Positions 3,497 through 48,837 of a stretch of 64,000 bases of DNA are shown one piece after another. The stretch comes from a virus: IMG/VR virus record IMGVR_UViG_3300027769_001114, positions 32,001 to 96,000 of that record; one strand, 5' to 3'. The position numbers and the translations under genes were made by a program. Positions within the stretch are counted from its first letter, which is position 1. Each line of letters begins with the position of its first letter. Below the pieces are notes generated by a model. It did not search any database and had not been told where the DNA came from. It was given only the letters and a program-made list of their open reading frames with translations.

Positions 3497-3512
3497 CCTT
3501 TCAGAGGTTTAT

Positions 3513-4472: not shown

Positions 4473-4485
4473 CACTGAGGTACCA

Positions 4486-5612: not shown

Positions 5613-5613
5613 G

Positions 5614-29505: not shown

Positions 29506-30110
29506 GCGAAACAAGGATTGTCGTTGGCCAAGAGGTCAGTAACGTCTATGTCTCAGGCGACCCGCCGAACCTCGTTGAGGTGACGGAGGCGACGAAGAAC
29601 CTCGTCGTTGTCTCACAGGAACTGCAGAACGTCATTGACGTTGTCACCAAGGGGACGCAGGGTCCAGCAGGTACGCAGATCATTGACGGAGAAGGCGCAC
29701 CCTCCAACTCCATTGGAAGAATCGGCGATTACTTCTTTGACAGGCCAAACGGCAAGCTCTATGGACCAAAGACGGCACTTGGCTGGGGCAACACCTATGT
29801 TCAGCTCCTGGCGTTTCTTGCCCTTGACGACATCACCGATGTGAACTCCACGAGTGCGGCAGATCAGGAAGTTCTCATGTACGAGGACTCAACCAATACA
29901 TGGAAGAACCAAAGAATCAGGTACAAGCACGATCAGGCACTGCCCGCCGATGTGTGGACGATCAACCACGGCCTCAAGACAAAGCCTGCGGCCATCGCCA
30001 TATTCGACACATCCGACACCATGGTCTTCGGCGATGTAGATCATGTGAGCGAAAATCAAGTCGTGCTTAGTTTTAGTTCGGCCTTTGCCGGGGTGGCGTA
30101 CCTGACATGA
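29502..30110 (+). CDS. Fibre-associated structural protein
   Basis: [16 protein letters not shown]...LYGPKT; C-terminal WTINH.L...FSSAFAG.AYL. Confidence 0.7.
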
Positions 30111-33100
30111 CCACGAAACATCTCAGTGGCATAACCGTTCCCTCTATATCCGTTGACGGAATAGAACTTGACCCCACGGGTGCTGTGACCGGGCAAGTTC
30201 TGCGTTATGACGGTACAAAGTTCGTCCCTGCCGCCGCCGTTGATGGTGTCGTCATCACATCTGCCCACGACGGACAAGTACTGATCTATAACGGCACGAA
30301 CTGGGTCAACGGGTCGTACCCGACGCACGAACCAACCGGCCACGAGGACGCATCGCAGAGCGAACTTGACTTCGACACAGGGACAAGGATCTTCACGATC
30401 TCCCCCGTTACAACATCTCATGCGGTATGGGTGAACGGAAAAAGGTATGTCAAGACGACTTCCGAGAGCGTCACGTTCCCGAATACCTCTGCTCTCTACT
30501 TCGTCTACTACAACTCGTCCGCCACGCTCTCGTACTCAACCTCGTTCTTTGATCTCAAGACACAAGCACCGGTTGCCTATGTCTACTGGAACTCAACCGA
30601 TGCCACCGACCACTTCTTTGCGGACGAGCGCCACGGCATCGTCATGGACTGGGCAACGCACGAGTATCTTCATAGAACCAGGGGCGCGGCGATCGCCAGT
30701 GGTTTCGGGGCGAACGTTTACAGCACTACTGGCGACGGCTCACTTGACGCTCACGCTCAGATTGACATCTCCAACGGCGTGTTCTTTGACGAAGACAAGA
30801 AGATTGAGATCACGCACTCGGCCTCGCCGGCGTATCACTCATTCCAACAAGTACTTCAGGGCGGTGCGGAGATCCCGATCTTCTACCGCACGAACTCCCA
30901 TTACAGGAGGGATTCCGCAACCAAGTTCCCTATGAAGCAGGGGACGGCGAGAGTCGCCTACAACCGTTACAACGCCGGGGTATGGTCAACGCCCGACATT
31001 GACAACAACAAGTTTGGTGTCACCTTCATTGTGGCGACAAACGACCTTCATGCCCCCGTCATCGGTATGCTCGGTCAGGCGCAGTACACCGATCAGGGTT
31101 CAGCCGAGGCGGCGAAGTGGGAGGACATGAACCTCTCTGACTTCCCGGTCTACGAGTTCCGCCCCCTGTACAAAATCGTCTATCAGACCGCCAACGCCTA
31201 CGACAACACCCCAAATGCAAGGATCACCGCAGTCATTGACATGCGCGTGGCAACGACGACGGGTGGCTCCGTCCCGACAACCCCTGTTACCGATCACGGC
31301 TCAATGACCGGCCTCTCGGACGACGACCACACGCAGTACCTGACCGACGTAAGACACGACGCGCTTGACCACAGCACGGCTCTTGGTTCAACGGCACTTG
31401 ACGACATCGGCAATGTAGTCATCACCGATCCCGACGGACTAGATGTTTTGCAGTGGAACGGCTCAAACTGGGTTAACTCACAGGTCATTGGGCCACAAGG
31501 TGCGCAAGGCGCACAAGGCGCACAAGGAGCGCAGGGAGCACAAGGCACTCAGGGTGTTGACGGCTCACAAGGTCCACAAGGTACTCAGGGAGTTGAAGGA
31601 CCACAGGGTTCAACCGGCGCACAAGGCGATGTTGGCCCACAGGGAGCAGAAGGTTCGCAGGGCGCAGAAGGGCCACAAGGGACACAAGGTGTGCAGGGTG
31701 CCGATGGTGCGCAGGGTTTAACTGGCGCACAAGGGGCGCAGGGTGCTGATGGTTCACAGGGTCCGCAGGGATACACGGGTCCTCAGGGCGATGCTGGACC
31801 ACAAGGCCCGCAGGGAGACCAAGGGGCGCAGGGATCACAAGGTGCTCAAGGGGCGGTTGGTTCACAAGGACCACAGGGCGACAGTGGACCTCAAGGTTCG
31901 CAAGGTCCTCAAGGCGATGTCGGCGCACAAGGTGCTACTGGACCTCAGGGTGCCAATGGCGCACAAGGCTCGCAGGGTCCGCAAGGGTCTCAAGGCGATG
32001 TTGGTTCACAGGGTGCGACTGGCCCACAAGGTGCTACCGGGAGTCAGGGTGAAACAGGGTCACAGGGTTCAACTGGCCCACAGGGTGCAACCGGCCCACA
32101 AGGTTCAACAGGTTCGCAAGGAGCGACCGGAGCACAGGGCGAACCAGGACCCGAAGGAACTCAGGGTCCGCAGGGTTCTATTGGTTCAACAGGCCCGCAG
32201 GGTCCGCAGGGGGAAACAGGAACACAAGGACCGCAAGGGCCTCAAGGAGAAGCGGGTTCACAGGGAACAACGGGGTCACAAGGACCTCAAGGGGCTGACG
32301 GACCACAAGGACCTCAAGGGGACAATGGACCGCAAGGCTCACAGGGAGACAATGGCTCACAAGGGCCACAGGGTGCCGACGGTCCTCAAGGTTCGCAAGG
32401 GGCCGACGGTCCTCAAGGTTCGCAAGGCGTCAACGGTCCGCAAGGAACTCAAGGACCACAAGGTGCCGAGGGCGCACAAGGCGCACAAGGTTCACAGGGC
32501 TCAACTGGCCCACAGGGTGCGACCGGTGGTAGTGGATCGCAGGGTGCAACGGGTCCGCAGGGTGCCACCGGGCAATCCTCGAGCTTCTATAAGTACAAGA
32601 TCAGCACCGGCTCTACGAGTGGCAATCCTGGCACTTCGTATGTCACATATAACAACTCTGCACAACTTTCTGCTACGCAGCTTCAGATCAACCATGTTGA
32701 CCTTGATGGCTATGACATTGACCTTTTCCTTGGTGTCATATCAACTGGTGATGTTATTTACATTCAGGACTCGAGCAACTCGGCAAACTTTCAGAAGTGG
32801 ATTGCTAACGGAACTATCACCGACCACGTCAACTCGTGGGTTGATGTGCCAGTCTCATACGACTCGTCTGGTGGCACGGGCGCGACGGGGTTCTCTAACG
32901 ACACCAACATTCTTCTAGTTATTGCCAACATTGGACCCCAAGGTCCGCAGGGTGCGACTGGTTCTCAGGGTGCGCAAGGTGCAACAGGTGCTCAAGGCCC
33001 GCAGGGTGATGTGGGAGCGCAAGGTGCCGTTGGTGCTCAAGGTGCTAATGGTTCGCAGGGTGCAACCGGAAGTCAGGGTGCAACCGGCCCGCAGGGTCCC

Positions 33101-34069
33101 GCTGGGACAAACGGAACAAATGGTGCTCAGGGAGCAACTGGCTCGCAAGGTCCACAGGGTGCAACCGGCCCGCAGGGTCCCGCTGGGACAAACGGAACAA
33201 ATGGTGCTCAGGGAGCAACTGGCTCGCAAGGTCCACAGGGTGCAACCGGCCCGCAGGGTGCAACCGGCCCGCAGGGTGCTGCCGGGACTAACGGGACCAA
33301 TGGTGCTCAAGGAGCGACAGGTTCTCAAGGCCCACAGGGTGCCGCTGGGACTAACGGAACTAACGGGACCAATGGCGCACAAGGTGCGACAGGAGCAACT
33401 GGCAGTCAGGGTCCTCAAGGTGCCACCGGGTCAACTGGGTCGACGGGGTCACAGGGTGCGACTGGCCCACAGGGTCCCGCCGGAACCAACGGAAATAATG
33501 GGGCACAAGGTGCGCAAGGTCCGCAGGGTTCCGCCGGAACCAATGGCAACAATGGGGCACAGGGCGCACAAGGCGCACAAGGTCCGCAAGGTCCAGCTGG
33601 AACCAATGGAAACAATGGCGCACAAGGCGCACAAGGTCCGCAAGGTCCAGCTGGAACGAACGGAACCAACGGAGCACAAGGAGCGCAGGGTCCACAGGGA
33701 GCAACTGGTCCAGTTGCTGGATCAGCAAATCAGGTCGTCTACAAGGACGGCTCAAACGCCGCTGCAGGTAGTGCAAACCTCACATTTAACGGCACCGACC
33801 TTAGCCTTGGTGGAAGACTTAATGTCAATGGCTCGTCAGGTGACGAGGGTGGCGAGATAGTCCTGATCAAAGCACAGACCAACACCACGCTCATAGGTGG
33901 GGTAGTTGTTGATGTGTATCGAGACAAACTCAGGCTCTATGAGCAAGGTGGAACTAATCGTGGCTTCTCTATGGATATGTCTTCCGCTGGAGCCTCTGTC
34001 TCAAGCATTGTCGCAACAACAACAGATGTGAGAGACGAACGCATTAGGTTCCTAATGGAAGTTATCTAA
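30107..34069 (+). CDS. Collagen-like long tail fibre
   Basis: Two long Gly-X-Y tracts (~31490-32575 and ~32930-33710) dominated by [12 protein letters not shown]. Confidence 0.9.
33074..33235 (+). repeat. Exact 81-bp tandem duplication in the collagen tract
   Basis: 33074-33154 equals 33155-33235. Confidence 0.85.
33689..33994 (+). repeat. Copy 2 of the ~305-bp module shared with the spike gene
   Basis: [15 protein letters not shown]...GGTNRGF occurs in both proteins. Confidence 0.9.
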
Positions 34070-34093: not shown

Positions 34094-34900
34094 ATGATCT
34101 CCATATGTACGCCTATCCATAACACTCCGCCCGACATGCTTGCAAGGACATGGGCAAGTCTCAAGGCTCAGACATTCACCGATTGGGAATGGGTCATCTG
34201 GGACGACGGAACGAACGACGAGGCATGGCGACAGGTCTATGGCTTTGCTTCTGACGAGAGGTTCAAGATCGTGGCACACCGTTCGCACGTTCACTCTGGC
34301 TCGATTGGCACAGTCAAACGCAGGGCGTTTATGGTTGCTGAGGGGGACATCCTTGTGGAACTTGACCACGATGATGAACTCACGCCCGACTGCCTTGGCG
34401 AGATTGCCACCGCCTTCTCTGACCCCACGGTCGGATTCGTGTACTCAGATTGGTGCGAGATCCTGCCGGATGGGCAGTCAGGGAAGTATCCCCCGGGCTG
34501 GGCGTTCGGATACGGATCGGAGTATTGGTCAGAACAACACAATGTCTGGGTCATGTCCGCACCGCCGATCAACCCCGAGACCATCAGGCACATTGTGTCT
34601 GCGCCAAATCACGTCAGGGCGTGGAGGTCGTCTGTCTATAGGGCTCTCGGCGGACACGACACATCCTTGCCAGTTGCCGATGACTACGACCTGGTCGTGA
34701 GGACATTCATCGCAACGAGGTTCGCCCACATCCCAAAGATGCTCTACAAGCAACACATTGGGCCGTCTACGGCGCAACGGGTCAGGAACGGCCAGATACA
34801 GCAACTCGTCGCCGAAATATCTGCCAAGTACGACCCATTTATCAGCGAAAGATTTGTACAGCTTGGCCCGATTGACGGCGTTATTGTCAATAATACATAA
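34094..34900 (+). CDS. Glycosyltransferase family 2
   Basis: ISICTPIHN, WEWVIWDDGT, ELDHDD, ADDYDL..R; TAGTAT 6 nt upstream (leaderless). Confidence 0.92.
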   Translation: MISICTPIHNTPPDMLARTWASLKAQTFTDWEWVIWDDGTNDEAWRQVYGFASDERFKIVAHRSHVHSGSIGTVKRRAFMVAEGDILVELDHDDELTPDCLGEIATAFSDPTVGFVYSDWCEILPDGQSGKYPPGWAFGYGSEYWSEQHNVWVMSAPPINPETIRHIVSAPNHVRAWRSSVYRALGGHDTSLPVADDYDLVVRTFIATRFAHIPKMLYKQHIGPSTAQRVRNGQIQQLVAEISAKYDPFISERFVQLGPIDGVIVNNT

Positions 34901-34970: not shown

Positions 34971-36431
34971 ATGGCAAAGTTCCTGACGAGCATTGACCTT
35001 CAGAAGAATCAACTGATCAAGGCGAGGATCGAGAACCTTGCGGACGACCCGGGTACGCCGGTCGCTGGTCAGATCTATTTCAATACCGGCTCAAGCCGTT
35101 TGCGTTACTACACCGGTTCGGCTTGGATTGAACTTGACTCGGCTGTTGAGTCAATCACGGCAGATGCACCCCTGAGCGTTGAAGTTGAAGGCACTACCGT
35201 CACCATCTCTATCTCTGAGGCAAACTCAAGTACTGACGGCTTCATGACCATGGAATACGCCGCCATGCTCACCGACGCCACCGACGCAAATACCGCCAGC
35301 AAGCTCGTCAAGAGGGACTCCAACGGTGACTTTGCGGCCAATATGATCACCGCAGATCTTACGGGTGATGTCACCGGTGAAGTATCGTCACTCGCCAACC
35401 ACGACACCGACGATCTTGCAGAGGGTACAACCAATCTCTACTACCTTGATACGAGAGTACAGGCCAACAGGCTTGATCAGATGGCGGCCCCAACGAGTAG
35501 CGTCTCGTTCAATAGTCAGAAGATCACCAGCCTCGCCGATCCGACCAACCCTCAGGATGCCGCCACTAAGGCATATGTTGATGCCGCTCGGCAAGGGCTT
35601 GATGTCAAGAGGTCAGTCCGCGCTGCCACAACTGGGCCCGTCACATTGGCTACGGCTCTTGAAGCTGGCGACACAATCGACACGAACGTCACTCTTGCCA
35701 TCGGTGATCGCGTCCTTGTCAAGGATCAGGCAACCGCATCGCAGAACGGTATCTATGTCGTCAAAGCCTCCGGTGCTCCCGATAGGGCTACGGATGCCAA
35801 TGGCACCGCCGACACAGGTACGGTCTCTGGTGGCACATTCACCTTCGTAGAAGAAGGTCTCGTCAACGCCGATAGTGGCTGGGTTGTTTCAAGTGACGGC
35901 CCGATCACCGTTGGCACCAACCCTATGAACTGGGTGCAGTTTTCTGGAGCCGGGCAGATTATTGCTGGTGATGGTCTCACCAAGGATGGCAATACACTCA
36001 ATGTTGGTGGAACGACCGACCGTATTACTGTCGGTGCAAACGCCGTGGACATTGCCGGTACGTATGCTGGTCAAAACACAATCAGCACCCTCGGCACGAT
36101 CGTTAATGGTGTTTGGAACGGCACGGCTGTGGCGGTTGCCTACGGTGGAACTGGAGCGTCCACTGCGGCCGACGCTAGGGCAAACCTTTCGGCTACCACC
36201 AAGTACGCCACCAATATCACGGGAACCGGAGCGGCGACAAGCTTCACCATCACTCACTCGCTCAATACGACCGATGTCGTCGTCATGATCTACGACACCC
36301 TCTCGGGTAACAACGATGTCGTCTATGCCGAAGTCAGGATTGCGTCGGTCAACACGATTACCGTCCTGTTCGATCAGGCTCCAGTTGGCGGCGGAACTCC
36401 GCAGACATACAGGGTCGTTGTCGTCGGCTGA
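34971..36431 (+). CDS. Tail fibre / virion structural protein
   Basis: DAATKAYVD...K.SVRAATT...GDRVLVKDQ....NGIYVV; C-terminal ITHSLNT.DV. Confidence 0.8.
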   Translation: MAKFLTSIDLQKNQLIKARIENLADDPGTPVAGQIYFNTGSSRLRYYTGSAWIELDSAVESITADAPLSVEVEGTTVTISISEANSSTDGFMTMEYAAMLTDATDANTASKLVKRDSNGDFAANMITADLTGDVTGEVSSLANHDTDDLAEGTTNLYYLDTRVQANRLDQMAAPTSSVSFNSQKITSLADPTNPQDAATKAYVDAARQGLDVKRSVRAATTGPVTLATALEAGDTIDTNVTLAIGDRVLVKDQATASQNGIYVVKASGAPDRATDANGTADTGTVSGGTFTFVEEGLVNADSGWVVSSDGPITVGTNPMNWVQFSGAGQIIAGDGLTKDGNTLNVGGTTDRITVGANAVDIAGTYAGQNTISTLGTIVNGVWNGTAVAVAYGGTGASTAADARANLSATTKYATNITGTGAATSFTITHSLNTTDVVVMIYDTLSGNNDVVYAEVRIASVNTITVLFDQAPVGGGTPQTYRVVVVG

Positions 36432-36440: not shown

Positions 36441-37103
36441 TTAGGCCGTTCCCACTATGAAGTTGCGGTAGTGATCGGCATGTCGATCGTCCCACGGGCT
36501 GTAACAGAACGAACTGACGATGTGCTTGTCGCCCGATAAGGGGATTCGCCCGCCGTGAGGATAGTTGAACCCGGTTGGGAATATGGCGACTCTTCCAGCC
36601 CTTGGTCGTACTGCGTATTCGTGTAGGTCAAACCATGTCTCGCCGCCACGTTCAACATCGTTGAGGTACAGAATGACTGCGACGACACGTTCGTTCAATG
36701 GCGGCATGTCAAATGGGGCCCCGTCAATGTGGCTCAAATAACGCCCTGATCCCTTTTCGTACTTTTGATATTGGTAGCCAGTGTCGTAACGGTTGATCCA
36801 GTTTTGTAGATGGAAAAAACGAGAGCAGTACTCAGTAAGGAGTGGAGAGAGGTGTGAGAACAGAACATCGTTATATGTCCCAAGTTGGGCTTTCTGATCT
36901 CCCTCTGCCCTATTGTTGTAGGCCGAAAGCCATGTGTCTGTTGATCGTTTTACATTCCTGTCGATGCCACCTACCGTCAGCCCGTCGTACGTCAGGTGCT
37001 GATTGGCCTCAATATAGGCAACAATCTCCGCACAGATATCTCGGTCAATCACATTGTCCGCGACGCCGATTGCCGAGGCTATTCCCAATGGAAACTCAAT
37101 CAC
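36441..37103 (-). CDS. Fe(II)/2OG dioxygenase, prolyl-4-hydroxylase-like
   Basis: Y.SHID...ILYLNDV..GGET.F...FP....YPH.G...K; GTG start overlapping the upstream stop. Confidence 0.9.
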   Translation of the reverse strand: MIEFPLGIASAIGVADNVIDRDICAEIVAYIEANQHLTYDGLTVGGIDRNVKRSTDTWLSAYNNRAEGDQKAQLGTYNDVLFSHLSPLLTEYCSRFFHLQNWINRYDTGYQYQKYEKGSGRYLSHIDGAPFDMPPLNERVVAVILYLNDVERGGETWFDLHEYAVRPRAGRVAIFPTGFNYPHGGRIPLSGDKHIVSSFCYSPWDDRHADHYRNFIVGTA

Positions 37104-37881
37104 GGCCGCCTTCTTTCTCGGCAATCTCCGCGTCCACTTTGACTTTGTGCATACGATATGGACGCGCTGTCGACCCGCCCGATGGGTGAAGCGAACCATT
37201 ACCAAAACCCCTGCCCGCCAACAACCTGTGATATTCAGGCCCGCCAAAGATTATTTTGTTCGTGTCAGCAGAACGCTTAAAGGGAATGAGGTGCGCAATC
37301 GGATACCCATAAGGTATTGAGAAGTCCTCCCCTGCAAGAGGATTTAGAACCACATTCATAGTGTGGTAGAAGTCGGTATGAATAACAGCCGGAGTGACGG
37401 TGAAGTTTGGTGACGGCTCGTACAGATTGGGCAGGATGATCGTTGACCAGCCTGGTGCAGTTCTAAAGTAGTACGGCGTTACAATCTTTGGATAGAAAGA
37501 CTCTTCTACCTGTCTTACCGAGGTCATCGGACACTTCCCGGTCTGCTCGTGGGCAAATGATCGCACGTAAAACTCGTACTGATCCTTACTGGCCTCGGTC
37601 TCTGAAAAGTTGTCCCAGTTGACGGACCAGTCATTTCCCTCGGGAGACAACTTCATCCTGATATTCGTCCATAGTGGCAATGTGACACCCATCGCCATGT
37701 AATCAGAAATACCAGCACAACGCCTGACGGAGCCAGGGAACTTTCCGATTGACCTGAACCATGATGGTGGTCTTGAGAGTTCGTTCACGAACGGTGGCAT
37801 TTCAAGCAACCTGTCGTCGTGGTAACTAATAAACAACTCCCCAGGCTTAATCTTCATGCCTGAGTAGCGTGGTCGTGGCAT
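37096..37881 (-). CDS. Conserved phage protein (DUF6065-like, possibly dUTPase-like beta fold)
   Basis: RRC.GI.D...TAPGWS...PAVIHTD.Y...G.PIAHLIPFKR; start re-called at ATG 37881 right after the halogenase stop. Confidence 0.6.
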   Translation of the reverse strand: MPRPRYSGMKIKPGELFISYHDDRLLEMPPFVNELSRPPSWFRSIGKFPGSVRRCAGISDYMAMGVTLPLWTNIRMKLSPEGNDWSVNWDNFSETEASKDQYEFYVRSFAHEQTGKCPMTSVRQVEESFYPKIVTPYYFRTAPGWSTIILPNLYEPSPNFTVTPAVIHTDFYHTMNVVLNPLAGEDFSIPYGYPIAHLIPFKRSADTNKIIFGGPEYHRLLAGRGFGNGSLHPSGGSTARPYRMHKVKVDAEIAEKEGGRD

Positions 37882-37882
37882 C

Positions 37883-39370
37883 TCAGTTCGTTGTTTCGAG
37901 GAGCGCCTGAGCGTGGTCAACCAACTCATGTGAGTACCTTTCTCTGCGTCGTTCATTCATGTCGTAGTCAACTCGCTGACGCAACCCCATGTTGTGTATT
38001 GCGAGTCCTGCCGCCTCGGGGTTCAATAGACCCTGCCCCTGAGCAACATGGAAAAAGTGAGGGGCGAGGAACATTTGCCCGTTTTCGTGTGGGACATCCA
38101 TTCTTGACGGCGTCCTCTCGGACCACAACTCTAGGAGCTCAGCAAGTGTGTCGTTAATCGGCATCTCCGAGCAGGCACGCCAGAACGGAGTGTGTGCGTT
38201 ATCGGACATGTAGTGCATCCTGATCATCGTGAGGATGTTGTCCATCATTGCGTCCATGTCGGAGTTGTACTTCTTTTGCATTGCTTTGTTACCTGGCTTG
38301 TAGGCAGCGACCGATGGTATGAGAAGCCTCAGTTGTTGAATAGTCGAACCTATTGAGGTTGCCTCTAGAGGTTCAACGAACGACGAAGCTAGACCGATGG
38401 CGCAACAGTTGTTAGCCCAAGAACCCTTCATGTAGCCAGGATCAAACTTGAACCGCCTAGCCGGCACGACACCACGACCCACGACGGAGGCAACCTCGTC
38501 AACAGCCTGCTCCTCCGTCAAGAAGGCGGAGCTATAGACATACCCGTTCCCTCTTCTCTCTTGTGTCGGTATCTCCCAAACCCAACCGGAGGACATTGCT
38601 CTCGCTCTTGTGTACGGACGTATCTGCCCAGAAGGGTCGGAGAGCGTTGGGAAGGCAATAGCAGAGTCGCATAGGAGATACTTGCTAAAGGATTGCCACT
38701 CCGCAGTCTCGTACTTGCTTATCAAGACGCGAGAAAAACCGGATGCGTCTATCCAGAAATCTGCCTCCACATCCGCGTCATTTACGGTCACAGAAGTGAT
38801 GTTGTTGGAGTCAGGGTCGAATGAGATCTCGCCGACATCGCCGTCCACAAACCGTATCTGTCTCACGACGCACAGTTCGGTGAAGTATGAGTTCAGCTTG
38901 AAAGTGTCAAAGTGGAACTGATTAGTGTTCCCGTGGAGGTTTTCCCTCCTGATCTGATTCCTGACAAGGCCGATTGACGATGTCTGACTTGTCAGCGATT
39001 GTCCGGCCTCCAAGAAACCCATATAGGTTGCGAACAACTGAAAAGCGTAGATTGTCTCGTCGCCCGAGACGCTGTGAAAGTAGTCGGGAAAGGTACTTGA
39101 CCATCCCTCAAACCTGATCCCGTACTTGTGGGTCGCCCCCGTCTTGGCAATCATTTCATGCACGGGTATGCGGCAGGTATCCATGAACTGCTTCCAATGC
39201 TCAGTACTTCCCTCGCCGACGCCAACAATACCGATGGTGCTCGACGAGACAACGGTGATGTCGGAGTTTGGGAAGGCGACCCTGAGCATGAGGGCGGATA
39301 TAAGACCGGCTGTTCCTGAGCCGACTATTGCGAACGAGATTGGTGCTTCGGTCTCTACTTCTTTATACAT
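37883..39370 (-). CDS. Flavin-dependent halogenase (tryptophan halogenase/PrnA family)
   Basis: IVGSGTAG, GVGEGS, THKYGI.F, HFD, DASGF, GWVWEIP (WxWxIP), FVEPLEATSI. Confidence 0.92.
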   Translation of the reverse strand: MYKEVETEAPISFAIVGSGTAGLISALMLRVAFPNSDITVVSSSTIGIVGVGEGSTEHWKQFMDTCRIPVHEMIAKTGATHKYGIRFEGWSSTFPDYFHSVSGDETIYAFQLFATYMGFLEAGQSLTSQTSSIGLVRNQIRRENLHGNTNQFHFDTFKLNSYFTELCVVRQIRFVDGDVGEISFDPDSNNITSVTVNDADVEADFWIDASGFSRVLISKYETAEWQSFSKYLLCDSAIAFPTLSDPSGQIRPYTRARAMSSGWVWEIPTQERRGNGYVYSSAFLTEEQAVDEVASVVGRGVVPARRFKFDPGYMKGSWANNCCAIGLASSFVEPLEATSIGSTIQQLRLLIPSVAAYKPGNKAMQKKYNSDMDAMMDNILTMIRMHYMSDNAHTPFWRACSEMPINDTLAELLELWSERTPSRMDVPHENGQMFLAPHFFHVAQGQGLLNPEAAGLAIHNMGLRQRVDYDMNERRRERYSHELVDHAQALLETTN

Positions 39371-40056
39371 ATTGTTTGTGCTATGAAACCCGGGAGGTGA
39401 TACATCAGCACATCCCCTCTTTCTCTTATTTCTGAGTGTATGTGGTGCGACAATGATTCGTCAAGTGCCGTGTACAGTTCGCCACCATTACCAGAGTTCT
39501 GTAGAACCATGACCTTGCCCTGTGGGAGAGCGTCAATGATTGCGTGAAGCAGTTGCTGATCGCAGGCAACCATATGTAGCAAGACTTGCGCATAGTCAAA
39601 CTCAACAAGACCGTCAACTAATGCCTCATACGTTGTCATCTCCACATTTGGGATGAGTGAGGTGTCGCAGTACCTCTCCATGAGTTTGGTCTGAAGGTTA
39701 GACGGAGTGACAACCTGATTCACGACATTTGCCACGATTGCAATCGTCCCGGGTGCCCCAATGATGAGAGCCCTAGTCCCCTTGCCGAGCATGGCGAACA
39801 TCTCTTCAAGGAGGTTCAGTCCGTCCATGAAGGGGGCAAACGACTCCCCGCCCTCTGTCCCCATGAGGGAGGCCAGATAGAACTCGTCACTACCTTGCAA
39901 CACCCTTTGGTCAACCCCGGTTGAGAGCCATTCTCCGTGAACAATCTGGCAGAAGTCAATCAAGGATTGTTGAGTTGGGAACGCGTTCGGACGCCCGACC
40001 CTTGTGCTCTGTTCAAGAACCTGCTCCATGGTCACTACGGTCATTGGCTTGGTCAT
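39355..40056 (-). CDS. Degenerate class I SAM-methyltransferase-like protein
   Basis: RALIIGAP (motif I-like), FD, L..GKVMVL; canonical acidic residues missing. Confidence 0.4.
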   Translation of the reverse strand: MTKPMTVVTMEQVLEQSTRVGRPNAFPTQQSLIDFCQIVHGEWLSTGVDQRVLQGSDEFYLASLMGTEGGESFAPFMDGLNLLEEMFAMLGKGTRALIIGAPGTIAIVANVVNQVVTPSNLQTKLMERYCDTSLIPNVEMTTYEALVDGLVEFDYAQVLLHMVACDQQLLHAIIDALPQGKVMVLQNSGNGGELYTALDESLSHHIHSEIRERGDVLMYHLPGFIAQTICIKK

Positions 40057-40286
40057 GAGGCACTCCCGTTCAGATGTTGAATCATCGTAAGAACATAGAT
40101 GATGTTCCTAAGTTCTACTTTTGCTCGACGCAACTCTCCACCAGTTAGGTAGGTGTTAAGGCCGTCCCTGATAGTTGTGTAGTTATCAGCGGTGATCGCT
40201 GTTTCGTCAACCATGGCTAGATCACATAGATACGCAACCCTGGCCGCAACATACTTCATGTGCGATGCCTCGTCATGCTCAATCAT
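40053..40286 (-). CDS. Small helical hypothetical protein
   Basis: ATG 40286 with GAGGGGGAG SD; overlaps both neighbours. Confidence 0.65.
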   Translation of the reverse strand: MIEHDEASHMKYVAARVAYLCDLAMVDETAITADNYTTIRDGLNTYLTGGELRRAKVELRNIIYVLTMIQHLNGSAS

Positions 40287-40485
40287 CAGACTCCCCCTCA
40301 ATGATCATTGGGCCAAGTGTGTCAAACACCGAACACCCTGAGATGCCACCTCCAGCGGCCCAGTTTATGAGCCTAAGTTTTGGCCCCGACGCTTCAATGT
40401 AGTACTGATCTTCGTCTGATGTTTCCCCACCGTTCGGTGACGCTGGCAGTCCTGGCATGATTGGTGTATCGCTCATAGTCATCAT
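40279..40485 (-). CDS. Small hypothetical protein (68 aa)
   Basis: Starts immediately after the dioxygenase stop and overlaps the next gene. Confidence 0.6.
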   Translation of the reverse strand: MMTMSDTPIMPGLPASPNGGETSDEDQYYIEASGPKLRLINWAAGGGISGCSVFDTLGPMIIEGESDD

Positions 40486-40486
40486 C

Positions 40487-41065
40487 CTAGTGATACCAGG
40501 TGACAAGTGAGTACTTTGTCCCCTCGGTCGGGCCAGCAGTATGAGCATAGGGAAAGTTTGACGGGAACATCACAACCCTTCCTGTCTCGCACGGAACGGA
40601 CACGTCAAAGTACGGGAAGGTGAGTTCGCCTCCCGTCCCCGAGTTGGACAAGTAAGCAACGCAACTGAATGTTCTTTCGTTGCCGGGGTAGTGGTCATGG
40701 TGTGTCCTGTACTCTCCCCCGGGCAAATACTTGAGAACCCTCCAGCCCTCATGAGGGGCTTGATGTATTGAGTGGTACGCAATGAAGTCAGATACACACC
40801 GTTCCACTACAGAGAGAACATCTTTTGAGAAAGTCTCCATGATGGGCGAGGTCGGGTTGGGGCTCATTATCGGGAGCAGTAAGCACTCCTTGGACGAACG
40901 GTATTCGGAGACCGTCCCTTTTCCGGTGCGGGCTTCGTCCCATGACAGCCTGCTCCATTCGTCGGAGCACTCGTCCTCGAGCATCTTGATAAACGCCGAC
41001 GAGTTCATGTCTGTGTCGTAGACATGTATTCCCGGTGCTGGCCTATCAAAAGCCTTGAACATCAA
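40487..41065 (-). CDS. Fe(II)/2OG dioxygenase, prolyl-4-hydroxylase-like
   Basis: LKY..G.EYRTHHD...YLSN...GGEL.F...FPSNFPYAH.A...KYSLVTW. Confidence 0.92.
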   Translation of the reverse strand: MMFKAFDRPAPGIHVYDTDMNSSAFIKMLEDECSDEWSRLSWDEARTGKGTVSEYRSSKECLLLPIMSPNPTSPIMETFSKDVLSVVERCVSDFIAYHSIHQAPHEGWRVLKYLPGGEYRTHHDHYPGNERTFSCVAYLSNSGTGGELTFPYFDVSVPCETGRVVMFPSNFPYAHTAGPTEGTKYSLVTWYH

Positions 41066-41474
41066 AATCCCCCCCTATGCCCATTGGTTCACCGTTAATC
41101 ACAACATCACAACTATGGGTCCCCGTATGTTCGGTTAGGAACACCCACCTTGCGTGGTGTACCTCTTTCACCAAAGGCTGAAGTACTTGCGTACCCATTG
41201 GTGATACAACCTCAAGGACAACCCGTTCATTTCTCATATTGACAAACTCATCGTCGTACATCACGACATGGTGCAACCCAATCGTAACTGCCTCTCTCAT
41301 GAAAAACTTTTTGATTGACGGTATGGAGACTACGCACGGCGTCGATGGATCATTGACTTGATGTGCGTAGGAATCCGTCAACCCAACAACCATGGGCATC
41401 ATGAGTCTTGATGCAAGTTCAACATTGTCTGCGTTCCCGTCCTCCCCTTCGGGAACGTACAGGTAACGGAGCAT
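41046..41474 (-). CDS. Hypothetical protein (Ig-like C-terminus possible)
   Basis: 142 aa, TAATG-coupled. Confidence 0.65.
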   Translation of the reverse strand: MLRYLYVPEGEDGNADNVELASRLMMPMVVGLTDSYAHQVNDPSTPCVVSIPSIKKFFMREAVTIGLHHVVMYDDEFVNMRNERVVLEVVSPMGTQVLQPLVKEVHHARWVFLTEHTGTHSCDVVINGEPMGIGGDFDVQGF

Positions 41475-41722
41475 TACTGAGTCTCGCCGAGTGCTTCCAG
41501 TTTGTCTGACATTTGAGTGATCAGATTCAGGATCTGAGGTATTCGTGTCTCCGCATATGGATGGCTGGGTGGATTTGATGGGGTAAACGACGAGTAGTCG
41601 TAGGTGTCGGGGTCAATCCCCATTTCGAGTGAACGTTCGTAGAGTTCTGCCTCAAGGCGGACAAGAGCGTTCTCGAGGAATATCTTCTTTTGAGCATTAG
41701 AGATGTTTGTACGGAATCCCAT
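41474..41722 (-). CDS. Small helical hypothetical protein
   Basis: AAAGGG SD; TAATG-coupled to the next gene. Confidence 0.7.
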   Translation of the reverse strand: MGFRTNISNAQKKIFLENALVRLEAELYERSLEMGIDPDTYDYSSFTPSNPPSHPYAETRIPQILNLITQMSDKLEALGETQ

Positions 41723-41733
41723 ATCGTCCCTTT

Positions 41734-43563
41734 CTAGGCGTTCAGTATGAGGTAACTATACCCGTCGGAAGATGTCCTGACGGTCTCGTCGGCGCCACCC
41801 GTAGCACCCTTACTGACATTGTACGAGATGCTCGGCGTTGTTTCGGTAACGACAATAATACCACCGCCACCACCCTTTCCGCCAGTGTTTCCAGTTGCGC
41901 CGGAGTTACCTACTCCTCCGGTGCCGCCAACGTTGCCCGTTGCGCCAGGGTTGCCCGCCGCTCCAGGGTTGCCCGAGTTGCCTTGGGTGGCATTACCACG
42001 ATTTCCCGCTGCACCACCAGCGCCCCCATTGCCACCCGGATAAGTGGTCGGAGGGTTGGCATGATGGTGTACGGCGGGGGCATTATGGTAGAGACCTGTT
42101 GGCACCCAGTGTGGACCATGGTTTGAGTTTGAGAGAGAAACTTCAATGTACTGAGTGGAGTGCGACCCGATCGTGGCGTTATGGTAATGGTGGTAGTGAT
42201 GCGGGCCGTGGTGCGCTGGACCACCCTGTGTGATGTGGTGGTTGTGGCCGTGCGGGCCGTCATGGTGCGGGTTATGACTATGACCCGTATGGTGATGGGC
42301 CGCTGCAATGGAGTGATCTGCGGCAGGGTTATGAACCCCATGATTGTGGCTTTTTGAGGCTTTGTGGACATCGTGCTGATATGTCCCAAAGTGGACATGC
42401 TGCCCCGTGCCGTAGTTTGCGTTATATACGGTATGTATTGCCCTATGGGGGTTGCTGACGCTGTCAGGGTTTGCATGGGTAAGGGCCGGCGCAGCAGCGC
42501 CAGTATTGCCTGCGCTACCAAAACCACCAGGGATTCCATGATTCCCAGGACTGCCGGCATTGCCGGGACTTCCTGCTGAGCCGGGACTTCCTGCTGAGCC
42601 GGGACTTCCTGCTGAGCCAAGCTGCCCACCCAACCCCGTTACCCCGTTGCCGCCGAGTGAGACTATGGACCCAGAGCCAACGATGCTCTTCGCCACAACG
42701 ATGACAATCCCCCCACCAATACCACCGTTGCCACCGGCACCACCTAGTCCGCCAGAACCACCTGAGCCACCGGCACCACCTGGGCCACCGGCACCACCGG
42801 CACCACCGTTACCACGCGCACCACCAGGTCCAGGGTTTCCAGCGTTGCCCGCCGTGCCCGAGTTGCCCGAATAGCCCCTGCCACCCTCAGCACCAACCGT
42901 GTTTGCGTTAGGCCCATACGAACCAGGATTACCGGCACTTCCTGCACCACCTGCGCCACCCGGATTACTAGGGTTCGCTGTCCCTGCATTTCCATTCGCC
43001 CCAGTGTTTCCCGCCGCCCCCGTAGTGCCCGGGGCACCCGATGCACCAGGGTTGCCCGATGCCCCCGTGTTCCCCTGTCCCCCAGAGACCCCGCCATTGA
43101 AGCCGACGGGGCTTGTTGTGGCCTTGACGATCAGTCCCCTAACCGCCATTGGTATATTGCCGTTAATAATCGACGTACCGTCTGTCGGAGTAACGGCGGT
43201 TCCGCCCGCAGGCACAGCACCGAGACCACCGATCCTGTATGTGATCGCACCGCCAGGAGAGTGAGTTCCGTTGACCGTACCCGCAGTCACCGCACTCGGT
43301 GCAGATATTGAGCCACCCGAAAATGTACCGATACCCACAAAACCACCACTAGCAATAGTGATACTCGTCTTACAAAAGACCCTGAAACCGTTTGTGTGGA
43401 GAAACGCGCCGTTCGGGACGGTAAGTACGTCGTAGTACATGTCCCGAGTCAATGTTGTTGTACCTGCCGAGAGTGTGACCGTGCCGTCTTGACCGTTGCC
43501 ATAGACGGAGTCGTTACCAATCCTCTGTACTGTTTTTATGTTGTACCTATCAACGGCAGACAT
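41734..43563 (-). CDS. Gly-rich (G-X-X) fibre-like protein with His-rich insert
   Basis: G-X-X tracts flank a 139-aa segment with 36 His; N-terminus paralogous to 43567..44253. Confidence 0.85.
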   Translation of the reverse strand: MSAVDRYNIKTVQRIGNDSVYGNGQDGTVTLSAGTTTLTRDMYYDVLTVPNGAFLHTNGFRVFCKTSITIASGGFVGIGTFSGGSISAPSAVTAGTVNGTHSPGGAITYRIGGLGAVPAGGTAVTPTDGTSIINGNIPMAVRGLIVKATTSPVGFNGGVSGGQGNTGASGNPGASGAPGTTGAAGNTGANGNAGTANPSNPGGAGGAGSAGNPGSYGPNANTVGAEGGRGYSGNSGTAGNAGNPGPGGARGNGGAGGAGGPGGAGGSGGSGGLGGAGGNGGIGGGIVIVVAKSIVGSGSIVSLGGNGVTGLGGQLGSAGSPGSAGSPGSAGSPGNAGSPGNHGIPGGFGSAGNTGAAAPALTHANPDSVSNPHRAIHTVYNANYGTGQHVHFGTYQHDVHKASKSHNHGVHNPAADHSIAAAHHHTGHSHNPHHDGPHGHNHHITQGGPAHHGPHHYHHYHNATIGSHSTQYIEVSLSNSNHGPHWVPTGLYHNAPAVHHHANPPTTYPGGNGGAGGAAGNRGNATQGNSGNPGAAGNPGATGNVGGTGGVGNSGATGNTGGKGGGGGIIVVTETTPSISYNVSKGATGGADETVRTSSDGYSYLILNA

Positions 43564-43566
43564 CGG

Positions 43567-44253
43567 TTACACCAACTGTATGTACTTTGACGTGCCGGCA
43601 GACCCCGTGCCATTGCCAGCCACATCAGTATCAACATTTGATGGCAACGATGGCCTTGAGGAGACGATGATTATGGCACCTCCACCAGCATTGGCAGATC
43701 CTCCGGGCGCGGCGAACTTGGCGTTTGTTGAAGTAGCCGTACAGGCGATGTACCTAGCGGCGACTATAACGATACCCCCACCTACACCGGTCGAGCCACC
43801 CGCACCACCCCTAAGCCAGGTGATACCTGTCGGAGTTACTGAGTAACCAAGGACGGCCTGATTTGCTTGGTCGTACCATTGGGTTCCCCCAACCGCCGCG
43901 GTTGGAGCGGGGGCGGTATATGTTCCGCCACTCCCTGTACCACCAAGACTTGAGGTCACAGATGTTGTGACTGCACCCCCACCATAGATAGAGCCGACCG
44001 CGGAGGAGCCGGTGGTAAAGCCGATTACTGTTGCATTACCAAGAGTAAGCAGGCCTTTCACAAACAGCCTGTAAGCACCCGTATTGAGTGTGATTGAACT
44101 GTTCACCGTCAGGTTGTTGTAGAACATATCCCTTGTCATGGTCGTGTTCGTGCTGATGGTGACATTGCCATCCGAGCCTGACCCATATACAACGTCCGGT
44201 GCGTCAAGAAAGGCGGCGAGGGTGTTTGAGCCGTACCTGGCTAAGGCTGGCAT
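43567..44253 (-). CDS. Gly-rich fibre/adhesin-like protein
   Basis: YG.G.DG.VT...TRDM.Y..LTV; GGGIVIV / GGGAIIIV motifs. Confidence 0.75.
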   Translation of the reverse strand: MPALARYGSNTLAAFLDAPDVVYGSGSDGNVTISTNTTMTRDMFYNNLTVNSSITLNTGAYRLFVKGLLTLGNATVIGFTTGSSAVGSIYGGGAVTTSVTSSLGGTGSGGTYTAPAPTAAVGGTQWYDQANQAVLGYSVTPTGITWLRGGAGGSTGVGGGIVIVAARYIACTATSTNAKFAAPGGSANAGGGAIIIVSSRPSLPSNVDTDVAGNGTGSAGTSKYIQLV

Positions 44254-44582
44254 CAGGTCTCCTCTATGCCGACGACCGTGAAGGTAACCGTCGTCGCCGA
44301 CGCTGTCATGAACAGTTTCTCTGCCGCGGCAAGTACGAGACTCAAGTTCACGGTCATAGTTTCGTTAGCACCTACTGCCATACTCGAGAGGATGCTGACG
44401 GCTGCCGTAACCCCACCGATACCTACCGAGACGGTGGCAGCACTTGCGGCCGTGTTGCAGATGATGATCTGTTTGACGATGGTGGTCGTCAGAGATGGGA
44501 CGAGATACCTACCGGCAGTCGTATCCGTAGATGTCGTAACCGCCACTACCGGCCCAAACAGGCGTTTTTGCGTTATGGGCAT
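44253..44582 (-). CDS. Small beta-sandwich fibre-associated protein
   Basis: Y.VP...TTIVKQIIICNT...TFTVVGIEE; GGAGG SD. Confidence 0.7.
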   Translation of the reverse strand: MPITQKRLFGPVVAVTTSTDTTAGRYLVPSLTTTIVKQIIICNTAASAATVSVGIGGVTAAVSILSSMAVGANETMTVNLSLVLAAAEKLFMTASATTVTFTVVGIEET

Positions 44583-45258: not shown

Positions 45259-47376
45259 ATGAGGATGTCAAGTAAGGGCAGAGGCCGAGTCAACCCGATC
45301 AGCGTCGTCGGTCTCGTCATGATCCTATTCGGGATGTTCGGTGCATTTTTCCCCAGCAGGGCGATGGCATCTACCTATGAAGTCACTCAGGCGCAAGACT
45401 TTCTCTTTTCGTTGACTTCCAGCCAACAGTTCGTTGTCACCGCAGACGCACAGAGGTACGGCATCGACAGTCACCTATGGCTGTACAACGGGTCAGGCGA
45501 ACTCATCGCAGCTAACGATGACCACTACGGTCTTGACTCGTATATCTCCATTGCTCTTAGCCCTGGCTCATACAGGTTGCGCGCTGGAGTCTGTTGTGGC
45601 GACCCGAACGCATGGTACGGATCGTCTTACCAAATCACGGTCAACACGGAAGCAATCAACGAGCCAACGACGACAACGAGTACTACAAGTACTACAAGTA
45701 CTACAAGTACTACTACAAGTACTACGACGAGTACCACCACCACGATCGCTCCGTTCATGAGCCAGCCGACGAATGTTGCCGTAGTCAACTCTGGTAACGG
45801 TGTCAACATCTCGTGGGATGCTCCGAACGAGGGAAACATTGAGCCAGAACGGTACGCCATCACCTGGTACTGCGCCGGCTGTGAGGGCAAAGCTATTTCT
45901 TCCTACGAGACGAGCATGTATATCGCGTACCCCGTGATCGCCGAGTCTGGCCCAATAGGGCAGAACTTCTATTTCTCCGTCAGGGCAGATAACGACACGT
46001 TGAGCGTCTACTCCGGTTGGTCTGAAGGAGTGACGGTGAGGGTTGGCCCGACAGTTCCCGATACATCAGAGAGTGGTGGTGGTTGTGGCCCATACACGCC
46101 GAGGCTCGTCGTAGGTAAGTCGCAGGGTGGTGCGGTTTGGGGTTCCAATCCGTACACGGATGACTCCGATATGGGTGTCGCCGCAGTAAACGCTGGCTTG
46201 ATCTCTGTCGGAGAGTGGGCCGTCATAGAGCCGTATTGGGTGGACAACTATTCAACATTCCCTAGTGGTACGAACAACGGAATCACCACTTACGCGTGGA
46301 ACTCCTCGTGGTGTGGTTACTACCTCAAAGTCTCAGGGACGCCAACCCCGACCACCACGACAACGACCACCACCACAACGACGACTACCGAACCGCCAAC
46401 AACCACAACGAGCACTACGACGACCACAGAGCCAGAAACAACTACTACTGAGCCCGAGACCACAACGACCGAGACCACAACGACCACGAGTACTACAACA
46501 ACGACAACTACTACTGAACCGCCGGCACCACCGACCGGGACAACCAGCACCACGACCACGGAGGCACCTGTTGAGCAGACGATCCCCCCAACGCCAAGCA
46601 CGACTCAAGTACCTCAATCAACAACGATCCCGCAAACTACAACGACGACGACCCAACCGCAGGTGACTATCCCTGATGTTCCCGAGGCCGAGCAAGAACT
46701 CGCTGATCAGGGTTACGACGCCGAAGAGGTTCAGCAGATAACAGAGACGGCTTCTGCGCTTGAGGATGCTGGTTACTCGGAAGAGGACGCAATCAGCATC
46801 GCTCAGACATCTTTGGATCTGCAAGACGAGGGCTACTCCGAAGAAGAGGCACTAACTATCGCCGAAACATCACTCGAACTACAGGACAAGGGCTACGACG
46901 AGGAAACTGCAATCGCCATCGCCGAGACATCTCTTGCCCTTGAGGAAAAAGGTTACGACGAAGAGACGGCACTTGAGATCGCCGAGACAGCCAACGAGGT
47001 AGAGGATCTCGGCTTCTCAGAAGAAGACTCAGTTGACATTGCTGAGACGGCAAACGAACTAGGTGACAAGGGGTACGACGAGGAGACGGCCGTAATCATC
47101 GCCGTTGAATCCTTCGAGATACAGGAACAAGGCTTTGATGAAGACGATGCCCTCAGGGCCGCCGAGGCAAACGTGTCGCCGTTGGCAGGCGTGCTTGGTG
47201 AGTCGACTGTCGCAGCCCCGTCGGTCGGACCAATAACGCTTCACATCGTCATCACTCCACAGGAGAGGCGCACCGTCGTAGCGGCGGGAGTCACTGTCGT
47301 ATTCGGCGGCGCCACAATATCAAGTTCTAGTAGTATGTCAAGCACGTCGTCTGGCCCATCGGGCAGGAAGAGGTAG
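45259..47376 (+). CDS. Exported/membrane protein: PPC-like + FN3 + LCCL-like domains, Thr-rich linkers, acidic repeats
   Basis: Signal peptide (AMA); D..LWLYN..G.LIA.NDD; FN3 ISW.AP; VWGSNPYTDDS...AAV.AG; C-terminal hydrophobic segment. Confidence 0.8.
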   Translation: MRMSSKGRGRVNPISVVGLVMILFGMFGAFFPSRAMASTYEVTQAQDFLFSLTSSQQFVVTADAQRYGIDSHLWLYNGSGELIAANDDHYGLDSYISIALSPGSYRLRAGVCCGDPNAWYGSSYQITVNTEAINEPTTTTSTTSTTSTTSTTTSTTTSTTTTIAPFMSQPTNVAVVNSGNGVNISWDAPNEGNIEPERYAITWYCAGCEGKAISSYETSMYIAYPVIAESGPIGQNFYFSVRADNDTLSVYSGWSEGVTVRVGPTVPDTSESGGGCGPYTPRLVVGKSQGGAVWGSNPYTDDSDMGVAAVNAGLISVGEWAVIEPYWVDNYSTFPSGTNNGITTYAWNSSWCGYYLKVSGTPTPTTTTTTTTTTTTTEPPTTTTSTTTTTEPETTTTEPETTTTETTTTTSTTTTTTTTEPPAPPTGTTSTTTTEAPVEQTIPPTPSTTQVPQSTTIPQTTTTTTQPQVTIPDVPEAEQELADQGYDAEEVQQITETASALEDAGYSEEDAISIAQTSLDLQDEGYSEEEALTIAETSLELQDKGYDEETAIAIAETSLALEEKGYDEETALEIAETANEVEDLGFSEEDSVDIAETANELGDKGYDEETAVIIAVESFEIQEQGFDEDDALRAAEANVSPLAGVLGESTVAAPSVGPITLHIVITPQERRTVVAAGVTVVFGGATISSSSSMSSTSSGPSGRKR
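45679..45726 (+). repeat. 9-bp tandem repeat (AGTACTACA) encoding a Ser/Thr linker
   Basis: Three exact and two variant units. Confidence 0.85.
46699..47170 (+). repeat. Eight 20-aa acidic repeats (L.D.GY.EE.A..IAET...)
   Basis: Visible in the translation, 60-bp period. Confidence 0.85.
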
Positions 47377-47818: not shown

Positions 47819-48028
47819 ATGATGAAGATCACCCAAGAGCACAAAGCAATACTGGCGTCGTATGGCAGGTCAATCATTGGTGCTGCCGTTGCAACATACA
47901 CCGCAACGCAGGATTGGAAGTTGACATTAAATGCCCTTTGGGCCGCCGCACTCCCAGTCGCAATGAGGTACCTCAACCCCAACGACACCGCTTTCGGTCG
48001 TGTCTATAAGGGTGGAATCAACAAATGA
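47819..48028 (+). CDS. Putative holin
   Basis: Small hydrophobic protein, LASYGRS...RYLNPND.AFG; overlaps the endolysin start. Confidence 0.65.
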   Translation: MMKITQEHKAILASYGRSIIGAAVATYTATQDWKLTLNALWAAALPVAMRYLNPNDTAFGRVYKGGINK

Positions 48029-48837
48029 GTCTCCCATTCATCAAGCTCGTCGTCCCCACCGCACTCAAGAGCAGGTTCAAGAACGGACAACTCGATCCTT
48101 CCGTCCTGGCTTCAGTCAAGACCGGCGGACGCATGTACGCGCCTGTGGCCGATCAGTTCAATAAGATGTACGACGCCGCCATGGGGGCTGGATTCAAGCT
48201 CAAGAATGTTGGCGACTACCGCGGCTTTGACGATCAGTTGAAGATGTTCCTTGATCGTTATGTCACCACCGACACCGGCACCGGAGTCACTCGTCAGTAT
48301 GACGGCAAGACCTGGTGGCTCAAGAAGGGCAAGGCCCCATCGGCCGCCCCAGATCCTACAGGCGTGAAGGGCTCCAACCACGGTTGGGGACTCGCCATTG
48401 ACCTTGGCTATGACGTCAATGGCAAGCTCACCTCAATGGGAGGTGCTTGCTTTGACTGGATGTGCGCCAACGCCCCCAAGTATGGCTTCTACCTTCAGGG
48501 AGACAACAGGGCATCTAAGGAGTTTGAGGCCTGGCACTGGCAGTACTGCCTCGGTGACAACGCCCCTGACGGTTCGGCTCAGTCCGCCCCATCGGCTCCC
48601 GCCGCCGCTCCTGCTCCCGCCGCTGGCGGACTTAACTTCGCCTACCCAGGAGCACCCGTAAAGAAGGGTTCCAAGGGTGATGCAGTCAAACTTGTTCAGG
48701 CAATGGTTAAGGCTAACCCTGTTGACGGAGACTTTGGTCCCGGCACTGAGGCTCAGGTCAAGGCATGGCAAAAGGGCAAGGGACTAACCACTGACGGTGT
48801 CATCGGGCCTGTTACATGGAAGGCGATGTTCGGTTGA
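48025..48837 (+). CDS. Endolysin: M15 (VanY-like) peptidase + peptidoglycan-binding domain
   Basis: YR.F..Q, SNHGWGLAID, EAWHWQY; DGDFGP.T...VK.WQ...DGVIGP.TW. Confidence 0.92.
   Translation: MSLPFIKLVVPTALKSRFKNGQLDPSVLASVKTGGRMYAPVADQFNKMYDAAMGAGFKLKNVGDYRGFDDQLKMFLDRYVTTDTGTGVTRQYDGKTWWLKKGKAPSAAPDPTGVKGSNHGWGLAIDLGYDVNGKLTSMGGACFDWMCANAPKYGFYLQGDNRASKEFEAWHWQYCLGDNAPDGSAQSAPSAPAAAPAPAAGGLNFAYPGAPVKKGSKGDAVKLVQAMVKANPVDGDFGPGTEAQVKAWQKGKGLTTDGVIGPVTWKAMFG

Follow-up and report, generated by a model that had tools for sequence, protein, structure and literature searches.

A stretch of viral DNA of 64,000 nucleotides (positions 32,001 to 96,000 of IMG/VR record IMGVR_UViG_3300027769_001114; the window, at its full length) carries within positions 36441-44582 a cassette of 12 tightly packed minus-strand open reading frames (ORFs), here named g01 to g12. 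This region represents one instance of a phage module that is widespread and inherited as a unit; its core encodes two Gly-rich proteins (g02 and g03), two smaller proteins (g04 and g05), a 2-oxoglutarate (2OG)/Fe(II) oxygenase of the prolyl 4-hydroxylase (P4H) type (g06), a flavin-dependent halogenase (g10) and a dUTPase-fold protein (g11). We propose, tentatively and somewhat short of calling it probable, that the enzymes of the cassette act on the co-encoded fibre-type chains g02 and g03. Four features of the predicted genes and proteins point in this direction, namely a two-way linkage that survives rearrangement, the proximity of P4H-type oxygenases to collagen-repeat proteins, the Y-position Pro residues of g03, and its His-rich insert. 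The source record comprises 130,481 bases, is estimated to be 88% complete, and encodes a tail sheath and other structural proteins of a myovirus.

The linkage of fibre-type genes and enzymes is strict and, like the genes themselves, is observed directly. It was approached from both ends. A halogenase-based search recovered 33 viral contigs, 31 with halogenases of 53-63% identity and two (L032 and L033) with 38%, and a search with a g02 profile recovered 250 relatives, the best 80 of which were kept and gave 79 loci, some of them on contigs common to the halogenase-based set. An earlier, sequence-based account of the window (hereafter the preliminary description) had suggested that halogenase neighbourhoods be examined for Gly-rich fibre genes, and the association is found in both directions. 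Starting from the halogenase, g02 lies upstream in 28 of the 31 loci with 53-63% identity, the other three having less than 1.9 kb of upstream sequence; a separate g03 match is obtained in all of these 28 loci except L004 and L030 (26/28), all 31 loci have an oxygenase, and 28 of the 31 have g11, the remaining three being cut. Starting from g02, a halogenase is found in 70 of the 79 loci at a distance of 2750-6288 nt, the other nine ending 770-2957 nt after the g02 start. Of these 70 loci, 63 have g11 (the sequence of the other seven stops no more than 108 nt from the halogenase), 67 have a 2OG oxygenase, and 13 have a methyltransferase-like gene.

Two small proteins travel with the same block. 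The 82-residue g04 (41474..41722, minus strand) is conserved after g03, with tblastn matches in 19 of 38 loci and positional homologues of 75-92 residues in all loci inspected. The 142-residue g05 (41046..41474, minus strand) always precedes the oxygenase, and hhalign relates it to 10 positional homologues (probability 96.6%, E 5e-10). Because g04 and g05 are conserved beside g02, g03 and the enzymes, the core that is inherited together consists of seven genes: g02, g03, g04, g05, the oxygenase, the halogenase and g11. Outside this core stand the frequent g01, the accessory genes g08, g09 and g12, and the unsupported g07.

The arrangement of the block varies more than its content. In 61 loci the enzymes share the strand of g02 and lie downstream of it, in five they are upstream, and in four they occupy the opposite strand; in the rearranged forms the enzyme part is inverted (L045-L048) or moved upstream (L083, L089 and L110), and the genes flanking the cassette vary between loci. 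These forms bear on the possibility that the linkage is historical only, the block having been inherited vertically within one viral lineage by genes of unrelated function. Close relatives are 40-60% identical over the block and have similar flanking structural genes in many loci, and may for that reason represent one phage family. Against such an explanation, the block holds through inversion, upstream transposition and duplication while its flanks change, and a distantly related triad of enzymes in cyanophage Syn9 also follows fibre genes; we consider a purely historical linkage quite improbable. Two blocks of fibre and enzyme genes occur together in L058/L059, one at 212-5676 and a second with its g02 at 10001 and its oxygenase at 16387.

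The halogenase g10 (37883..39370, minus strand) was correctly placed in the PrnA family by the preliminary description, matching Trp_halogenase (PF04820) with 325.9 bits against a cut-off of 21 and PHROG 2928 with an E of 1e-100. Its matches in the PDB are PyrH (2e-56), BrvH (4e-56), PrnA (2e-46), MibH (1e-42) and VirX1 (4e-41), the alignment to PrnA stopping at chain residue 428, and it scores 24.7 bits with the QhpG model of NCBIfam, the cut-off of which is 240. Two motifs are invariant in 21 halogenases, GxGxxG (G17, G19 and G22) and WxWxIP (W263, W265, I267 and P268), which we take to be the FAD-binding motif and the halogenase motif, respectively. Also invariant in the 21 are K82 and E333/E336, presumably the equivalents of the catalytic Lys79 and Glu of PrnA, as assigned from motif context without structural superposition. 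A flavin reductase (PF01613), which the preliminary description had likewise failed to see, is absent from the virus record at its 88% completeness, so the host would have to supply the reduced flavin adenine dinucleotide (FADH2).

Both oxygenases, g06 (40487..41065, minus strand) and the accessory g12 (36441..37103, minus strand, with a GTG start), match 2OG-FeII_Oxy_3 (PF13640), at 50.5 and 39.4 bits, respectively, against a cut-off of 27. The closest solved structure for each is the P4H of Bacillus anthracis, a collagen-peptide prolyl hydroxylase (E 5e-4 for g06 with PDB 3itq/5hv0 and 1e-6 for g12 with 3itq, with about 80 residues aligned), in keeping with the earlier naming of two P4H-like dioxygenases. 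The His-x-Asp...His triad and the 2OG-binding Lys (H122, D124, H175 and K184) are found in 23/23 distinct oxygenases, including g06 and g12. With their catalytic motifs intact, the halogenase and the oxygenases look active. The likeness to the B. anthracis enzyme (3itq/5hv0) extends from the PF13640 family and the His-x-Asp...His and Lys residues to the collagen-like proteins encoded beside g06 and g12; it is limited by a low sequence similarity and by the absence of Gly-X-Pro-Gly from some g03 relatives. A collagen-type prolyl 4-hydroxylase of viral origin is known in the P4H of PBCV-1. The whole record of the present virus has just two PF13640 genes and just two collagen-repeat proteins, and all four are encoded within 14.5 kb.

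The candidate substrates are related to one another. The 228-residue Gly-rich protein g02 (43567..44253, minus strand) was defined by its family alignment and by an AlphaFold2 (AF2) model that is beta-solenoid-like, with a predicted local distance difference test (pLDDT) score of 75.5. A fold search of the PDB with this model returned nothing at E <= 0.001, the weak list consisting of beta-solenoid and ice-binding proteins; in BFVD, the model resembles 'collagen-like' proteins of Pandoravirus, Orpheovirus and uncultured phages (best E 1.8e-11). The protein has 812 database relatives, and among 120 listed none is named and none has a Pfam domain. The 609-residue g03 (41734..43563, minus strand) is a paralogue of g02, sharing with it an N-terminal domain, as seen in tblastn cross-matches, and C-terminal motifs, and adding collagen-like Gly-X-Y runs, poly-Gly stretches and a His-rich insert. 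From position and fold, we infer that g02 and g03 are parts of the virion.

The longest Gly-X-Y runs of g03 have 11 triplets, and its match to Collagen (PF01391) is borderline, reaching 24.5 bits as a protein (cut-off 27.2) and 30 bits, above the cut-off, in a six-frame search. Its Pro residues stand at the Y position, with 12 GxPG and 3 GPxG triplets, and collagen P4H hydroxylates at X-Pro-Gly. The description of g03 as both Gly-rich and His-rich stands as well, the insert at about residues 371-525 having 35 His among 155 residues. This insert is a family trait: in 58/58 distinct proteins at the g03 position, the densest window of 100 residues holds 11-43 His. An instructive comparison is with the receptor-binding tip of T4 gp37, described in the available part of the source as binding iron through His-x-His motifs (PMC11705849). 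The two share a His-rich segment within a trimer-type fibre protein, and metal binding by the g03 insert is for this reason plausible; they differ in that the HxH motifs of g03 are at the level set by composition and in that g03 has no sequence match to the solved gp37. An iron needle of the gp37 type built on HxH was accordingly rejected for the insert, and metal binding in a general sense is possible.

That g02 and g03 would be the substrates, and which of their residues would be modified, is what we infer from these features, and the process may be pictured as follows. Transcription of the module would be shared with the fibre genes, and the enzymes would meet the fibre-type chains soon after synthesis, before these have folded. 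One or more oxygenases would hydroxylate Pro in Gly-X-Pro-Gly triplets, or another side chain, and the halogenase, with FADH2 supplied by a reductase of the host, would place a halogen on an electron-rich side chain within the His/Tyr-rich insert or close to it. In the present genome, the set is extended by a degenerate protein of methyltransferase fold and by another oxygenase, g12. In its most specific form, the proposal is that phage enzymes tailor fibre tips by hydroxylating Pro or other residues and halogenating His, Tyr or Trp within a His-rich loop that is hypervariable, with the dUTPase-fold Cys protein as an accessory subunit; so detailed a version is doubtful.

The combination of enzymes is not new. 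An array in cyanophage Syn9 consisting of dioxygenases, halogenases and a dUTPase-fold protein was described by Iyer et al. (2010; PMC2938197) and interpreted, in the available text of that paper, as a system of organohalogen secondary metabolism. Common to this array, as presented there, and to the cassette are a classical 2OG/Fe(II) dioxygenase, a Trp-halogenase and a dUTPase-fold protein with conserved Cys (PMC2938197), and just as most relatives of the cassette continue the fibre operon, the Syn9 array comes after genes of its own strand that putatively encode fibre and fibre-assembly proteins. The differences are in scale and in company. The cassette is compact, with one or two oxygenases and one halogenase, compared to 10 and 2 in the Syn9 array as given in that text (PMC2938197), and the two PF13640 genes noted above do not form part of any tandem array of many dioxygenases in the record. 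The JmjC/MINA-type member that the same text assigns to the Syn9 array (PMC2938197) has no match among the 12 cassette proteins. The cassette is tied to the Gly/His-rich family, to which gp35 of Syn9 is unrelated through g02, and its host is probably an actinobacterium, unlike that of Syn9, as judged by two WhiB-family homologues in the record (window 55227-55418, plus strand, and record 120826-121032). The same block is also found on a contig of a metagenome-assembled genome labelled Gammaproteobacteria. A multi-halogenase array resembling that of Syn9 is seen in L032, where three halogenase homologues in tandem are accompanied by one oxygenase and, on the opposite strand, by part of a fourth homologue.

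Related gene pairs occur near structural genes in other phages. In Sf-CH11, 2OG oxygenases flank the halogenase directly behind a large structural protein, and in P-SSM2 a halogenase and a 2OG oxygenase, one gene apart, adjoin fibre-assembly genes. Cyanophage reviews, in the parts available, treat prnA and the 2OG oxygenases as auxiliary genes of unknown substrate. Together with the interpretation given to the Syn9 array in the accessible text of Iyer et al. (PMC2938197), this favours a different role for the triad, in which it makes or alters a small molecule, such as a halogenated and hydroxylated metabolite derived from an amino acid, and adjacency to fibre genes reflects a tolerated insertion site and late co-expression; the lack of a conserved target residue in g03 can be read in the same way. 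What such a role leaves unexplained is the linkage to g02 and g03 in 70/70 informative loci and in three arrangements, which an insertion hot-spot does not predict. Further, biosynthetic genes such as those for a peptide synthetase, a carrier protein or an exporter are absent from the cassette, and both of its oxygenases are of the protein-prolyl hydroxylase type. On balance, we place small-molecule chemistry on the unlikely side.

Flavoenzymes of this kind are not confined to free substrates, as MibH (PDB 5uao), ChlH, QhpG and LodB act on residues within peptides or proteins. From the material available on them, these four and g10 are FAD enzymes of one Trp-halogenase/monooxygenase superfamily, and by this analogy polypeptide-directed chemistry by the superfamily is possible. 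In sequence, g10 is no closer to the peptide-acting flavoenzymes than to the free-tryptophan halogenases (1e-42 with MibH versus 2e-56 with PyrH), and the cassette, unlike the peptide-tailoring systems, has no leader peptide, recognition element or protease. The preliminary description had gone further and seen in the gene order a cluster resembling those for ribosomally synthesized and post-translationally modified peptides (RiPPs), with a virion appendage as its substrate. The RiPP analogy is abandoned here, since no short precursor, recognition element, leader protease or exporter occurs among the 12 proteins and the candidate substrates have 228-609 residues; what stands of that suggestion is the linkage to Gly-rich proteins, strong from both ends, on which tailoring of a virion appendage may still be argued.

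The dUTPase-fold protein g11 (37096..37881, minus strand) completes the triad. The window protein has no Pfam match, and an AF2 model built from a 21-sequence alignment (pLDDT 68) finds dUTPases in the PDB by Foldseek, with an E of 1e-4 and a template modelling (TM) score by target of 0.6-0.7. Its score with the dUTPase family PF00692 is 11.5 bits, below the cut-off of 22, and nine of 21 homologues match at E of at least 0.024; as modelled, the likeness to dUTPase is one of fold only. C71 and C133 are invariant in the family alignment, and hhalign relates the family to Syn9 gp43 (96.5%, E 7e-10). The earlier label of DUF6065-like holds weakly at the level of the family, in which five of 21 homologues match PF19541 at E of at least 0.03 and 11% of the members of the Atlas cluster, the source of a further lead, carry DUF6065; it does not hold for the window protein, which has no match. 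A role for g11 as the missing flavin reductase was rejected because the fold is dUTPase-like.

As the only dUTPase-like gene in the virus record and one with a nucleotide-hydrolase fold, g11 lends some weight to the idea that the enzymes act on another macromolecule, be it a host envelope component or protein, g04, g05, the collagen-like fibre protein of 1320 residues encoded nearby (30107..34069, plus strand; 302.8 bits with the Collagen Pfam), or a nucleotide-linked substrate bound by g11. In the same direction, distant relatives of g11 lie beside ribonucleotide reductase genes, g04 and g05 are conserved as strictly as the enzymes, with g05 always placed before the oxygenase, and the collagen-like fibre gene has a glycosyltransferase gene next door. 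Several of these substrates encounter difficulties of their own. The collagen-like fibre is not found in all loci, the score of g11 with the dUTPase family falls at about half its cut-off, and to our knowledge no nucleotide-modifying role has been assigned to the Trp-halogenase family. We judge action on another macromolecule to be unlikely. The Pro residues of the 1320-residue fibre stand mostly at the X position, with 55 GPxG and 2 GxPG triplets.

Returning to the proposal that g02 and g03 are tailored, a number of observations weigh against it. Tailoring of the fibre is a candidate reading, and modification has been observed nowhere so far. The counts from the g02 profile rest on the best 80 of 250 g02 relatives, all close relatives may belong to one viral lineage, and accessory genes commonly insert behind fibre genes. 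Neither g02 nor g03 is found near the more distant halogenases of L032 and L033 (38% identity), and g02 has no tblastn match in 50,697 deposited phage records. In S-PM2 and HTVC008M, the halogenase is not beside fibre genes, and distant g11 homologues (25-27% identity) in cyanophage S-RIM4 (L042) and Haloarcula virus HCTV-8 (L043) adjoin ribonucleotide reductase genes without a halogenase, neighbourhoods that hint at a nucleotide-related ancestral role for the dUTPase-fold family. No oxygenase is detectable in L103 and L112 despite available sequence; L117 also has none, its sequence stopping at the halogenase. Within the g03 family, no target residue is conserved: Trp is missing from 4 and GxPG from 6 of the 58 g03-position proteins, though their loci keep the enzymes, which rules out the former as a universal target of the halogenase and weakens the latter as a universal target of the oxygenase. 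The HxH count of g03 is 9, compared to 7.7 +/- 2.2 in shuffled sequences, 670 of 2000 of which reach 9. Lastly, the layout of the cluster is not RiPP-like, and extended versions of the g06 oxygenase, in which it would be fused to a fibre, were sought and not found, which is weak evidence. A survey of the literature found no paper in which modified virion proteins are linked to a phage halogenase or a P4H-type oxygenase, supplementary gene tables lying outside its coverage.

The remaining members of the cassette are less constant. The preliminary description had listed all 12 minus-strand ORFs in their correct order and position. The starts of g11, g12 and g07 were revised from homologue alignments and start codons to 37881, 37103 (GTG) and 40485, respectively, and adjacent genes are then spaced by +11 to -23 nt, consistent with the earlier statement that they overlap or lie within about 11 nt of each other. 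The cassette is headed by the 109-residue g01 (44253..44582, minus strand), the putative small beta-sandwich of the preliminary description, which has no Pfam, PHROG or NCBIfam match; by tblastn, many loci have a homologue of g01 immediately ahead of g02, and such homologues are frequent rather than universal. The possible ORF g07, of 68 residues (40279..40485, minus strand), has no conservation support, there being no detectable homologue in the 38 + 79 loci screened. The small ORF g08 (40053..40301, minus strand) accompanies the methyltransferase-like gene, its tblastn matches being confined to loci with g09. The latter (39355..40056, minus strand) has no Pfam or NCBIfam match, and its Atlas model, one of low confidence (pLDDT 0.55), resembles Methyltransf_3 O-methyltransferases with a TM score of about 0.62. 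The motif I glycine loop for S-adenosylmethionine is not conserved among 13 g09 homologues, and 'degenerate methyltransferase-like', the name first given to g09, is a fair description of a fold likeness without a conserved glycine loop. The second oxygenase, g12, sits after g11 in this methyltransferase-bearing form of the cassette.

At its downstream end, the cassette converges with the gene for a 486-residue structural protein of fibre or decoration type (34971..36431, plus strand; PHROG annotations of head decoration, tail fibre and virion structural protein) across a gap of 10 nt, and a 133-nt spacer parts it from divergent plus-strand genes at the other end. A scan of the cassette region for promoters and terminators gave site counts no higher than those of shuffled sequences, and a megablast comparison of the 9-kb region with deposited phages gave no match. 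The cassette here opposes the plus-strand fibre genes. In most relatives it is co-directional with them and continues the fibre operon on the same strand, as in L037/L038, where the order is fibre, collagen-like protein, g01 and g02. The inverted layout emphasized in the preliminary description is thus a local trait of this genome, for which it holds, and not one of the module.

Several neighbouring genes deserve mention. Between the genes for the 1320-residue collagen-like and the 486-residue fibre proteins lies a family 2 glycosyltransferase (GT2) gene (34094-34900, plus strand; 64.1 bits), the product of which may glycosylate a fibre protein; in L029 and L038, homologues of 72-73% identity are encoded within a few kb of the cassette. 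A protein of 705 residues (45259-47376, plus strand) has a hydrophobic N-terminus, long Thr-rich linkers, an LCCL domain and acidic repeats, and its relatives are found upstream of the cassette in several loci. Further away, a phosphoadenosine-phosphosulfate-reductase-like gene (6037-7182, plus strand; PHROG 2302, E 9e-72) lies upstream of the tail genes, and endolysin-type domains occur in two proteins (18453-19940 and 48025-48837, both plus strand), the first of which, inside the tail module, may be a tail-associated lysin.

Aquatic viromes abound in phage halogenases and 2OG oxygenases, which, in the literature as available, have been listed for some twenty years as auxiliary genes with an unknown natural substrate. 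The module described here offers g02 and g03 as concrete candidate substrates for viral halogenases and reduces the enzyme array to a compact core of seven genes. Should the fibres prove to be unmodified, the module still defines a large Gly/His-rich family of phage proteins, with 812 relatives and no named member among the 120 listed. If tailoring is true, it would provide the first halogenated viral structural protein, as well as a natural substrate of the viral flavin-dependent halogenases, and host recognition by phages would gain an enzymatic layer that depends on halide and oxygen.

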